Source of the DNA: Dictyostelium discoideum
Taxonomy: Eukaryota
Length of the DNA stretch: 64,000 nt
NCBI GenBank assembly: GCA_000004695.1
Contig: CM000150.2
Location: forward strand, 2,304,001 to 2,368,000
Direction of reading: 5' to 3'
The position numbers were made by a program, and so were the translations under genes. Numbering within the stretch: position 1 is the first letter of the stretch; every line of letters begins with the position of its first letter. The notes below the pieces were generated by a model, which ran no database searches, was not told where the DNA came from, and saw only the letters and a program-made list of their open reading frames with translations. Positions 49,413 to 51,776 of the stretch are shown one piece after another.

Positions 49413-51776
49413 ATGAACTCAATATCTTCAATTCCACTTTCTTTCCCATTTGATCCAATTTCATCATTAAAAAATAGTAATAATATAAATAACAATAATA
49501 ATAATAATAATAATAATAATAATAATAATAATAATAATAATAATAATAATAATAATAATAATAATCAACAAATTAAATCAAATAAAAGTTTATTTTTTAA
49601 AGAAGATGGTGACAATGAATTTTTAGTATCAAGAAAATTAATTCCACCACCATCTCTTGTTATTCAAAATACTATCGAATGTAGTATTCTTTTAAATAGT
49701 TTAAATAATTTAAATAGTTTAAATTATAATAATAATAAAAATAATAATAATAATAATTTTAATAATAGTAATAATAATAATAATAAAATTATTTATAACA
49801 TAACCAATAATGATAATGATAATAATAATTATAACAACAACAACAATAACAACAATAACAACAATAACAATAATAACAATAATAGATATTCACCATATTC
49901 TAAAAAAATCCAAACAAGTCAATTATTAAATAATAATAATAATAATAATAATAATAATAATAATATTGACAATAATAAAAATATTCAATATTTTAATACT
50001 GCCGCATTACAAGAATTAAGATCCATTATGTTATTAGAACCAGTTTCACCATCATCATCAGCTTCATCCTCACCAAGAACTGATACTTTTAATTCACCAT
50101 CACAATCACCAGAAATTATATATAATAATAATAATAATAATTTTGGTAGTATTAATAACAATTATTATTATAATAATAATAATAATAACAACAACAACAA
50201 CAACAACAACAACAACAACAACAACAATAACAACAACAACAACAACAACAATAATAATAATAATATTTATAATAATAATAATAATAACAATAACAGTAAT
50301 AATATTAATAATTTAATTATTCAAAATTCAACATGCGATTCATCTTCATCAACCAATTCATCGCCTTTATCATCACCAAGTTTTTCATCAAATTATGTTA
50401 ATATATTTACAATTAAAAATAATAATAATAATAACAATAGTAATAATATTAATAAACAAACTGTAAATATAAATTCACCAAAAAAAGTAAATGTAAATAA
50501 ATCAAATGAAATAATAAATACTTTATCAACTTCAATATCACCAATTCCATGCCCAATAACGACATCAACAACAACAACAACAACAACAACAACAATTACA
50601 CCAATTTATAAAGAATTAAAATCAAAACATATTACACCATTACAAAGTTTTTCATTTATTTTCCATAACACAATTGAATATTTAACATTTGAAATTTCAA
50701 AAATAAGAAACTTTAGTTCAGCTTCAACATTTTATTTGGGATCACGTTTTCCAATCACATTTAAAACCGTTGAATCATTTATCATTGTTTCATTATTTAT
50801 AAATTCACATTCATTGGATAGAATTTCAGATTATTGGAGTACAACTCAAGCAAAAGCATTCCCAGGTGTATCTTTAATTCCAAGAATACTCTCAAGAAAT
50901 AAATATTTTGAAATTAAATCTTCACTTTCTCATGTACTCTCAATTGGTCTTTTGGATAATATTCAAAATATTTTATTTAATGATGTATCTTTAATTTTAA
51001 AATCAAATGACTCAAATAATAATAATAATAATAATAATAATAAAAATAATGAAAATGGTGTTGTAAATATTTTAAATAGTTTAAATAAAGATTCAAATTC
51101 AACTACAAATAATTCTACAACAACAACAACTACAAATAATAAATTTAAAACACCAGTTAAACATAGAAATTCAACTAAAGAATTGGCTGCTTTTAATTTA
51201 ATACTAGAATATGGTTTAAGTAATTCAATTGATCTCTTTACAAGTAATCGTCAATGTTTTACAACTGTTCCGCAATTTGTTGAAACTTTAACTGAACAAA
51301 TTAGTTCTGAAGAAAATAATAATAATAATAATACTGCCACCAATAATAATACTACCACTAATAATAATAATAATAATAATAATAATAATAATAATAATAA
51401 TAATAATAATAATAATAATAATAATAATAATAATAATAATAATAATAATAATAATAATAATAATAATAATAATAATAATAATAATAATAATAATAATAAT
51501 AATAATAATAATAATAACAATACTGCTACTAAATTAAATAGTAATAATGGTATCTCTGATAATCAAAATCACGTTCTTTTAACAGTACACAAGAAAAAGA
51601 TGTGTTTTGGTTGCAAGTATCCAGTGAATAGTGCCAATAATAATACTACTACTAATAATAATATTACTGCCAGTCAATTATCAACTCTTAAATGTTCAAA
51701 ATGTCATTTACATTATTGTGAATCATGTTTTAATGTGGCTCATAATTATATCAATAATATAAATAATAATAATTAA
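49413..51776 (+). CDS. Asn/Thr-rich ORF (787 aa) carrying piggyBac-transposase signature motifs (DDE_Tnp_1_7 N-terminal block and C-terminal Cys-rich finger) but no recognisable DDE catalytic core; a piggyBac-derived, domesticated or decayed, gene
   Basis: ...ASTFYLGSRFPITFKTVESFIIVSLFINSHSLDRISDYWSTTQAKAFPGVSLIPRILSRNKYFEIKSSLSHV matches the piggyBac block fiG...........dYWs......p.i...MSRdRFe.i.r.LHf. The C-terminus CFGCKYP...(about 25 aa)...LKCSKCHLHYCESCFNVAH resembles the piggyBac CRD (CxxC...CxxC..C..H..C). Between the two motifs the expected roughly 300-aa DDE region is replaced by poly-Asn runs ((AAT)n at 51360-51520 encodes about 55 Asn). Confidence 0.55.
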   Translation: MNSISSIPLSFPFDPISSLKNSNNINNNNNNNNNNNNNNNNNNNNNNNNNNQQIKSNKSLFFKEDGDNEFLVSRKLIPPPSLVIQNTIECSILLNSLNNLNSLNYNNNKNNNNNNFNNSNNNNNKIIYNITNNDNDNNNYNNNNNNNNNNNNNNNNNRYSPYSKKIQTSQLLNNNNNNNNNNNNIDNNKNIQYFNTAALQELRSIMLLEPVSPSSSASSSPRTDTFNSPSQSPEIIYNNNNNNFGSINNNYYYNNNNNNNNNNNNNNNNNNNNNNNNNNNNNNNIYNNNNNNNNSNNINNLIIQNSTCDSSSSTNSSPLSSPSFSSNYVNIFTIKNNNNNNNSNNINKQTVNINSPKKVNVNKSNEIINTLSTSISPIPCPITTSTTTTTTTTTITPIYKELKSKHITPLQSFSFIFHNTIEYLTFEISKIRNFSSASTFYLGSRFPITFKTVESFIIVSLFINSHSLDRISDYWSTTQAKAFPGVSLIPRILSRNKYFEIKSSLSHVLSIGLLDNIQNILFNDVSLILKSNDSNNNNNNNNNKNNENGVVNILNSLNKDSNSTTNNSTTTTTTNNKFKTPVKHRNSTKELAAFNLILEYGLSNSIDLFTSNRQCFTTVPQFVETLTEQISSEENNNNNNTATNNNTTTNNNNNNNNNNNNNNNNNNNNNNNNNNNNNNNNNNNNNNNNNNNNNNNNNNNNNNTATKLNSNNGISDNQNHVLLTVHKKKMCFGCKYPVNSANNNTTTNNNITASQLSTLKCSKCHLHYCESCFNVAHNYINNINNNN

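Follow-up and report, generated by a model that had tools for sequence, protein, structure and literature searches.

Domestication of piggyBac genes has been documented in vertebrates and ciliates, and no case was found for Dictyostelia among the surveys and literature searched. Outside the piggyBac superfamily, the P-element KP repressor, a truncated transposase that regulates its transposon, and transcription factors of transposase origin such as FHY3/FAR1 have retained transposase binding modules after catalytic loss. Within the piggyBac transposase itself, an RNase H-like domain and an insertion domain lie between the two halves of the dimerisation-and-DNA-binding domain (DDBD), a domain without other structural relatives, and the linker leading from the DDBD to the finger is disordered (PMC7351741, from which the domain boundaries used below are taken). 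The domesticated relatives include nine PGBD groups, in which the catalytic triad is often unconserved; the survey that describes them reports that some have lost the DDD residues and that PGBD1 and PGBD5 have lost the finger, and it names none that lacks the catalytic domain altogether (PMC5381638). Ciliate Pgm combines a 424-residue core domain with a C-terminal coiled coil, a ciliate PGBD innovation, and the PiggyMac-type variant of the cysteine-rich domain (CRD) has a C1-like fold (PMC8086355).

We analyzed a 64,000-nucleotide stretch of Dictyostelium discoideum DNA (the window), in which a single-exon ORF on the forward strand (49413-51776, +) encodes a protein of 787 amino acids, the stop codon being additional. 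Asn accounts for 282 of the 787 residues, or 36% of the protein. The exact sequence of this AX4 ORF was absent from the protein collection searched; the ORF is also called as a gene in two other isolates. The initial annotation of the region had described one 787-codon reading frame with an N-terminal piggyBac-like block followed, in that order, by a C-terminal Cys/His finger, and the sequence bears out both points. Our preferred interpretation, to which we assign a probability of about 0.78, is that this is a host gene which arose by domestication of a piggyBac transposase before Dictyostelia radiated, that it lost the catalytic core while keeping the DDBD and the finger, and that its product is a non-catalytic DNA- or chromatin-binding factor.

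The N-terminal region of the protein (aa 1-404; 49413-50624, +) is Asn/Ser-rich and probably disordered, and a Pfam search of this region returned no domain. Two short motifs within it are common to the orthologues, L-I-P-P-P-S at aa 76-81 (49638-49655, +) and R-Y-S-P-Y at aa 158-162 (49884-49898, +); in the orthologue alignment Y159, P161 and Y162 are invariant. It is followed by block B1 (aa 405-527; 50625-50993, +), which corresponds to the first DDBD half, approximately residues 130-255 of the T. ni transposase (PB). B1 contains DYWST followed by LSRNKYFEIKSSLSH, and the piggyBac-like block proper, at aa 470-511, reads DRISDYWSTTQAKAFPGVSLIPRILSRNKYFEIKSSLSH. A 49-residue linker (aa 528-576; 50994-51140, +) occupies the expected site of PB 263-457 and leads to block B2 (aa 577-632; 51141-51308, +), which begins KFKTPVKHRNSTKELAAFNLILEYGLSNSIDLF and ends VETLTEQI. 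The initial annotation had overlooked B2, for which we propose equivalence to the other DDBD half (PB 457-535). A second linker (aa 633-718; 51309-51566, +) holds the Asn microsatellite, and the protein ends in a binuclear-type zinc finger (51570-51743, +).

To assess the kinship of B1 and B2 with piggyBac, we compared them with profiles, sequences and structures. Against the signature tPl..F..f / DYWs...P....MSRDRF..I...LH, B1 presents TPLQSF..IF, DYWST...P... and LSRNKYFEIKSSLSH. Isolated D. discoideum B1 had PF13843 (DDE_Tnp_1_7) as its best Pfam family (21.1 bits, E=2.1e-4), 1.3 bits short of the gathering threshold of 22.4 bits, and the full-length protein gave no piggyBac match in Pfam. 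The Synstelium orthologue exceeded that threshold (23.8 bits, E=3.2e-5), the Acytostelium orthologue scored 17.8 bits (E 2e-3) and the Cavenderia orthologue gave no match. All matches to PF13843, in every orthologue scored, were confined to profile positions 1-92 of 349. A phmmer search with aa 403-634 against 1.84e9 representative proteins recovered three dictyostelid proteins and one other, P0021, and nothing else. P0021 matched at E 6.2e-4 with 41% identity and is a genuine piggyBac fragment, with matches to PF13843 (E 4.8e-26) and to residues 147-250 of piggyBat (E 3e-10); a profile built from the dictyostelid proteins only scored it at 37.6 bits. Judged at the level of sequence, the similarity of the N-terminal block to piggyBac exceeds chance, and B1 is homologous to piggyBac. 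As modeled, B1 and B2 together have the DDBD fold, which piggyBac builds from two segments (PB 117-263 and 457-535). Other comparisons were negative: Pfam searches with B2 from all four species matched no family; the dictyostelid profile found no piggyBac chain among PDB sequences, only a weak TFIIH p44-type finger match; an hhalign comparison with the T. ni sequence alone produced no match; the dictyostelid profile, run locally with hmmsearch on segments of T. ni PB and on piggyBat 147-250, gave no significant score relative to shuffled controls; and a Foldseek search was negative.

The catalytic region between the N-terminal block and the finger had been described as missing, and it is indeed missing, in D. 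discoideum and in all orthologues. Pfam searches revealed no DDE or RNase H-like region in this interval, no strand elements were predicted between B1 and B2, and neither the domain carrying the DDD triad (D268, D346, D447) nor the β-stranded insertion domain is present. The spacing from B1 to B2 is 14-49 residues in all four genera, which leaves the core absent from every orthologue, and a metagenome scan for additional relatives or a core-bearing intermediate found none. The accompanying proposal that the core had been replaced by poly-Asn proved wrong. At the site of the core lies the 49-residue linker, in which poly-Asn is limited to an N9 run (51015-51041), alongside a run of T6, and which has a pLDDT below 50 in the predicted structure; the orthologues have a short, ordinary linker of approximately 14-36 residues that is not Asn-rich. 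The long poly-Asn tract is located elsewhere, between B2 and the finger.

That tract (51360-51521) had been reported as a perfect (AAT)55, but the actual sequence is (AAT)52-AAC-AAT, encoding 54 Asn. A second isolate has 55 Asn at this position and a third has 8. The Asn tracts are best explained as microsatellites that expanded specifically in D. discoideum, where the disordered linkers tolerate them, and as uninvolved in the loss of the core. Such microsatellites, ranging from 8 to 55 codons across isolates, can cause routine annotation with HMMs to miss a conserved domain.

The C-terminal finger has the ligand arrangement H720-x10-C731-x2-C734-x26-C761-x2-C764-x4-C769-x2-C772-x4-H777. All eight ligand positions are conserved across the four genera, position 769 being His in the other three. 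We compared this arrangement with the PB-type CRD (CxxC-CxxC-CxxH-CxxC) and the Pgm-type CRD (an upstream His followed by CxxC-CxxC-C...CxxxH); the observed order, H...CxxC...CxxC-x4-(C/H)-x2-C-x4-H, fits the Pgm-type variant, and the location after the DDBD is correct. The finger never matched the piggyBac finger model PF13842 in any search, and it matched Pfam C1 and PHD models weakly (E 2e-5 to 1e-3). The predicted structure of this part has low confidence. The finger resembles generic C1/PHD domains equally well.

Orthologues are present in Cavenderia (Group 1), Acytostelium (Group 2), and Synstelium and Dictyostelium (Group 4), in a clade that is at least 600 My old (PMC7919456), and the core-less architecture is identical in all of them. 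In public records the orthologues are entered as 'hypothetical protein' with no domain given. Between D. discoideum and C. fasciculata, B1 and B2 show a pS of 0.85-0.89, which is saturated, and a pN of 0.26-0.31; pN/pS was used instead of dN/dS because dS is saturated. The two blocks remain 58-66% identical despite the saturation of synonymous sites, and they persist across a gene G+C content of 19-55%. The N-terminal region is less constrained (pN 0.49 vs pS 0.63). In both D. discoideum and C. fasciculata the next gene upstream, which has the same orientation, belongs to the Cpn60/TCP-1 family; it is absent in A. subglobosum. Within D. discoideum, the gene call for this ORF has 788 aa in isolate GCA_054883475.1 and 739 aa in isolate GCA_054859355.1. 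The alleles are intact in all three isolates and differ in length solely by in-frame repeat indels; relative to AX4, the most divergent allele, that of 739 aa, has a single amino-acid change in each of the three conserved modules (B1, B2, finger), and all its ligands are unchanged. These results demonstrate purifying selection on the gene. A PGBD in the sense of PMC5381638 is recognized by single copy, orthologous position and selection; the dictyostelid gene has orthologues in four genera and shows purifying selection.

We also searched the surroundings of the gene for signs of mobility. In the interval 46.5-54.8 kb, inverted repeats consisted of A/T low complexity alone. The C/A-rich block at 48959-48983, one of the candidate terminal inverted repeats suggested by the initial annotation, was rejected because the window holds no inverted copy of it. 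The gene occurs once in the 64-kb window, and the phmmer search found one protein in each of the other three species. Neither the TTAA-flanked terminal inverted repeats nor the multiple copies that define an active piggyBac-like element (PBLE) were found in the stretches searched. The neighborhood does contain transposon debris, in the form of the degraded relic of a Harbinger-type transposase 350 bp downstream.

Several other explanations were weighed against domestication as a DNA- or chromatin-binding factor. A protein of the same ancestry could regulate piggyBac transposition in a trans-dominant manner, much as the KP repressor does for the P element, by binding element ends or by poisoning transposase multimers, and the retention of dimerisation and DNA-binding modules with loss of catalysis is the architecture of a competitive inhibitor. 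We consider this unlikely, however, since no full-length piggyBac was found in dictyostelids by the phmmer protein search or the metagenome scan, the PMC5381638 survey has no piggyBac-like element from Dictyostelia and lists Entamoeba invadens as the sole amoebozoan case, and 600 My of constraint without a target element is difficult to account for. It is distinctly unlikely that the gene encodes an ordinary Asn-rich dictyostelid protein whose helical domain and PHD/C1 finger are both generic and which resembles piggyBac by chance. The sub-threshold score in D. discoideum, the lack of a match in Cavenderia, the unmatched PDB piggyBac chains, the negative Foldseek search and a finger that matches C1 and PHD models rather than PF13842 all favor that explanation; on the other side, the similarity of the N-terminal block exceeds chance, with the Synstelium orthologue above the PF13843 threshold and a genuine piggyBac fragment recovered by phmmer.

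By analogy with the catalytically inactive PgmL proteins, which assist PiggyMac in Paramecium, the protein might take part in programmed DNA processing without catalysis of its own, alongside a separate nuclease. The PiggyMac-type ligand arrangement and the nature of the DDBD as a multimerisation module are consistent with such a role, which we nevertheless regard as very unlikely: the phmmer search found no catalytic piggyBac paralogue in dictyostelids, and PgmL proteins align as PGBD-type with a transposase core (PMC8086355), whereas the dictyostelid protein has none. Descent could also have run in the opposite direction, in which case dictyostelids would preserve the host helical domain from which the DDBD arose, and piggyBac transposases would have acquired it. 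The DDBD's lack of other structural relatives would suit this scenario, but we give it very little credence, as the family is limited to one clade in the phmmer search while piggyBac is eukaryote-wide (PMC5381638), identity between B1 and a typical piggyBac fragment reaches 41%, and the DDBD, the disordered linker and the finger follow one another in transposase order. Finally, a decaying piggyBac element or pseudogene, that is, an internally deleted copy drifting neutrally with its ORF open by chance, was one of the two alternatives offered initially, the other being the domesticated PGBD-type gene that we retain; despite the wholly absent core, the extreme low complexity and the neighboring relic, it is effectively refuted because the core-less form is intact in four genera at least 600 My apart, non-synonymous change in B1 and B2 is constrained at saturated synonymous divergence, every isolate indel is in frame, no inverted repeats accompany the single copy in the window, and 232 stop-free non-repeat codons in approximately 80% A+T DNA are very unlikely under neutrality.

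Under the preferred interpretation, domestication with loss of the core, a piggyBac transposase would have been captured as a host gene ahead of the dictyostelid radiation. The catalytic and insertion domains would then have been deleted in frame, leaving a short linker in their place and reuniting B1 and B2 into one domain. The product would consist of a disordered N-terminus, the DDBD, a flexible linker and a PiggyMac-type Cys/His finger, in that order. With its catalytic domain removed, the protein would be unable to cut or join DNA, and it is most likely a DNA- or chromatin-binding factor, probably dimeric, with a possible role as a transcriptional or chromatin regulator. The internal-deletion origin, the dimerisation, the binding to DNA or chromatin and the biological role are inferences.

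The literature search retrieved no earlier description of a dictyostelid piggyBac-derived gene and no mention of the orthologue identifiers. The locus appears to represent an undescribed, very old and unusually reduced transposon domestication, and it is the first case that we could find, as far as the literature searched shows, of whole-domain loss with a retained finger from piggyBac in Amoebozoa or Dictyostelia. The surveys and literature searched contain no case in which the entire catalytic domain is lost and both halves of the split DDBD are kept. If the interpretation is correct, piggyBac domestication extends to Amoebozoa, at an age comparable to that of Metazoa; the gene is a natural experiment in DDBD folding without the inserted RNase H domain, relevant to the engineering of piggyBac DNA-binding modules; and a genetically tractable organism possesses a deeply conserved, probably nuclear putative factor. 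More tentatively, it is possible that this is the oldest and most reduced piggyBac domestication, that the DDBD is an autonomous fold separable from the nuclease, and that the family is the first of transposase-derived regulators in social amoebae.

Compared with T. ni piggyBac (6X67/6X68) and Myotis piggyBat (9C0F), to which it is approximately 10% identical, the dictyostelid protein lacks the RNase H-like domain, the DDD triad and the insertion domain, and its gene lacks inverted repeats and is not mobile. Like vertebrate PGBD1-5, it is transposase-derived, without inverted repeats, under purifying selection and represented by clade-wide orthologues; in contrast to the PGBDs as described in PMC5381638, it has deleted the whole catalytic domain yet kept the finger. 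With ciliate PiggyMac, PgmL1-5 and Tetrahymena Tpb/Lia5, some of which work without catalysis of their own, its finger agrees in ligand order with the variant that has an upstream His and folds like a C1 domain. The fingers differ in charge: that of Pgm, which binds histone H3 and not DNA, has an acidic pI of 5.5, and the dictyostelid one a basic pI of 8.4-9.3. The KP repressor and FHY3/FAR1 follow the same logic outside this superfamily; in piggyBac the ancestral DDBD was discontinuous, and the deletion therefore had to be internal and in frame.

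Exact matches of the neighboring ORFs to ate1/DDB_G0269024, abcG23, XP_647050 (an EGF-like/ComC protein) and rabT1 place the window on chromosome 1 of D. discoideum AX4. The piggyBac-derived ORF at 49413-51776 (+ strand, 787 codons) was recovered with exactly the coordinates and length given in the initial annotation. Asn accounts for 282 of its 787 codons, and amid this low complexity lie the non-repetitive blocks B1 (aa 405-527), B2 (aa 577-632) and a C-terminal Cys/His finger (aa 720-777). The exact AX4 protein was not found in a collection of 15 billion proteins, and no D. 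discoideum entry was among the results of an exhaustive search of representative proteins (phmmer, aa 403-634); another D. discoideum assembly does have a gene call for a 788-aa allele. Clustering or filtering driven by low complexity may conceal this protein from routine searches.

The proposed piggyBac similarity was borne out by HMM search for isolated B1, at a sub-threshold score, but not for the whole protein. The full-length protein has no piggyBac match in Pfam, probably because of compositional bias. The only family matched by isolated B1, in a repeated result, was DDE_Tnp_1_7 (PF13843); the match (E=2.1e-4) spans profile positions 29-90 of 349 and scores 21.1 bits, where the curated threshold is 22.4 bits. 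The exhaustive phmmer search of 1.84 billion representative proteins with aa 403-634 returned four matches in total. Three were strong (E 1e-55 to 1e-47, 50-65% identity), from Synstelium polycarpum, Acytostelium subglobosum (XP_012759472) and Cavenderia fasciculata (DFA_07390/F4PWA3); the fourth was P0021, a 131-aa protein fragment (E=6.2e-4, 41% identity). P0021 is a true fragment of a piggyBac transposase, matching PF13843 with E=4.8e-26 and aligning with piggyBat residues 147-250 (E=3e-10). With a profile made from the four dictyostelid sequences alone, it scores 37.6 bits. Against PF13843, the Synstelium orthologue scored 23.8 bits (profile 1-90), above the Pfam threshold, and the Acytostelium orthologue 17.8 bits (profile 1-92), while the Cavenderia orthologue had no match. 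The B1 signature is TPL..F..IF ... DYWST...P...LSRNKYFEIKSSLSH. Taken together, the PF13843 and phmmer matches, P0021 and the orthologue scores show that B1 derives from the N-terminal portion of the transposase domain of piggyBac.

B2 (KFKTPVKHRNSTKELAAFNLILEYGLSNSIDLF...VETLTEQI), unmentioned in the initial annotation, is as conserved as B1 among the orthologues and showed no sequence-level match to anything in Pfam or profile searches. Two structures were predicted, template-free, from the four-sequence alignment with moderate confidence, one for the Synstelium protein from B1 to the C-terminus (pLDDT 66.8, pTM 0.62) and one for the window's own B1-B2 region (pLDDT 67.8, pTM 0.66), and these models were compared with piggyBac 6x67_C and piggyBat 9c0f_D. 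B1 can supply no more than ~132 structured residues, so a minimum of ~35-40 aligned residues must belong to B2. Both PDB entries are later than the AlphaFold2 training set, so the fold, which resembles the piggyBac dimerisation-and-DNA-binding domain (DDBD), was not memorised. In piggyBac, cryo-EM showed an all-alpha-helical, 'structurally unique' DDBD in which residues 117-263 converge with 457-535, and which is responsible for dimerisation and for binding TIR bp 7-16. The catalytic domain (263-457), itself containing the insertion domain (372-433), splits the DDBD in two, and beyond the DDBD come a weakly ordered linker and the cysteine-rich finger, or CRD (553-594) (PMC7351741). The models thus suggest that B1, linker and B2 are the remainder of a DDBD from which the catalytic and insertion domains have been taken out. 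The reverse ancestry, in which a DDBD-like domain of the host preceded piggyBac, is less likely.

The finger has eight potential zinc ligand positions (H720, C731, C734, C761, C764, C/H769, C772 and H777), kept in all four genera. Their order, an upstream His, CxxC, CxxC, C/H-x2-C and a terminal His, fits the variant, PiggyMac-type CRD, which was shown by NMR to adopt a C1-like, circularly permuted treble-clef fold and also occurs in other PBLE transposases and human PGBDs (PMC8086355). The piggyBac finger model PF13842 was never matched in Pfam; the weak best matches, C1_1 and C1_2 (E 2e-5 to 1e-4) and PHD variants, are consistent with a C1-like CRD of this type. From its position and ligand order, descent of the finger from the piggyBac CRD is plausible. 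The dictyostelid finger is basic (pI 8.4-9.3) and in this resembles the DNA-binding CRD of T. ni piggyBac, whereas the CRD of Pgm is acidic and histone-binding.

Intact alleles were present in both further D. discoideum isolates. One is identical to AX4 except for one extra AAT; the other encodes 739 aa and, relative to AX4, has in-frame indels in the repeats, a conservative F415Y in B1, a single change in B2 and another in the finger loop, with all ligands unchanged. The initial annotation had incorrectly described a core replaced by poly-Asn, including a perfect (AAT)55. The tract is actually (AAT)52-AAC-AAT, encoding 54 Asn (51360-51521), and it sits in the linker between DDBD and finger, which is likewise disordered in piggyBac (PMC7351741); the site of the core is instead the B1-B2 linker (aa 528-576), which carries only an N9 run and is not Asn-rich in other genera. 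With 54, 55 and 8 Asn across the three isolates, the tract is a hypervariable coding microsatellite of a kind common in the D. discoideum genome, tolerated by a disordered region. Most of the other Asn/Thr runs (49488-49565, 49833-49883, 50172-50264 and 51015-51041, + strand) also vary between isolates (for example N26 vs N17 and N31 vs ~N16), all length differences being multiples of three bases.

All orthologues share one architecture: a disordered N-terminus with the short motifs LPPP.S and YHPY, then B1 and B2 joined by a linker of 14-49 residues, and last the finger, which a second linker connects to B2. Since every orthologue is core-less, the core had already been lost in the ancestor of dictyostelid Groups 1, 2 and 4, which is at least 600 My old (PMC7919456). 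As evidence of constraint, synonymous sites have reached saturation (pS 0.85-0.89) in the comparison of D. discoideum with C. fasciculata, and non-synonymous differences are still low, with pN at 0.31 in B1 and 0.26 in B2; the blocks also persist among orthologues whose gene G+C runs from 19% to 55%. The gene has a single exon in A. subglobosum and C. fasciculata, as in D. discoideum. Its direct upstream neighbor, on the same strand, is a Cpn60/TCP-1-family gene containing Asn-rich insertions both in D. discoideum (window 43213-44685, +) and at the C. fasciculata DFA_07390 locus, L001 (5333-7802, +); no such neighbor was found at the A. subglobosum locus. Similarity between the two Cpn60/TCP-1-family genes is weak (E about 1e-8 to 1e-9), which leaves their orthology unproven. 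The public model of DFA_07390 (L001 8001-12244, 4.2 kb) has extra N-terminal exons (MSSEKVCGNDEWYHG...); the conserved protein sits in one ORF (L001 10262-12244), and the 5' exons of the public model were probably mispredicted.

No terminal inverted repeats were found near the ORF, the inverted repeats reported being A/T runs only, and the C/A-rich block proposed as a candidate has no inverted partner. Upstream of the ORF, the intergenic sequence has homopolymer runs of T31 (48795-48825) and A49 (48910-48958) and a C/A-rich 25-mer that is unique (48959-48983), some 430 bp ahead of the start codon; this is no transposon end and could represent promoter architecture. Of the two readings first offered, the domesticated gene is upheld by core-less orthologues across genera, constraint, intact alleles and the lack of terminal inverted repeats, and on these grounds the decayed element is rejected.

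A frameshifted PIF/Harbinger-type transposase relic (52123-52699, +) lies ~350 bp downstream of the stop codon. Its ORF 52382-52699 matches PF13359 (DDE_Tnp_4) above threshold (E=9e-8), with upstream pieces in other frames, and the gene calls of isolate GCA_054883475.1 include the relic as a 156-aa gene. Isolate GCA_054859355.1 lacks the ~1.07-kb segment containing it (~51924-52998) between colinear flanks; neither a clear duplication nor a clear inverted repeat was seen at the junctions. Farther downstream, a 162-aa ORF with a signal-peptide-like start (53127-53615, +) seems to form exon 1 of the EGF-like/ComC-type gene XP_647050 (1439 aa), whose main ORF (54873-57800, +) carries DUF7035, DUF7034, DUF7949 and ComC_SSD domains.

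The ORF protein thus lacks the catalytic domain, keeps a two-zinc-type finger and, according to the models, keeps the fold with which piggyBac dimerises and binds DNA; we put piggyBac ancestry and this architecture jointly at about 0.85-0.9. The gene probably arose from an internally deleted piggyBac copy co-opted by the host; such a deletion would be viable, the nuclease being in topological terms inserted into the DDBD. Its product would bind DNA or chromatin without catalysis, probably as a dimer, a role to which we give roughly even odds; an inhibitor of transposition or a nuclease partner similar to PgmL is a less likely function.

Without the defining catalytic feature, the protein is not a transposase, and it qualifies as a domesticated derivative. 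No domain is given in the public records of the orthologues, and no mention of them was found in the literature. The superfamily survey, which recognized nine PGBD groups, included a single amoebozoan case, an element in Entamoeba invadens, and none from dictyostelids; some of its PGBDs lack catalytic residues or the finger, and loss of the whole domain is unmentioned (PMC5381638). The closest known systems are the vertebrate domesticated PGBD genes and the ciliate Pgm/PgmL/Tpb proteins, the core domain of Pgm comprising 424 residues (PMC8086355). Compared with PGBDs and Pgm, the dictyostelid protein keeps the finger and, as modeled, both DDBD halves, whereas the entire RNase H and insertion module is gone.
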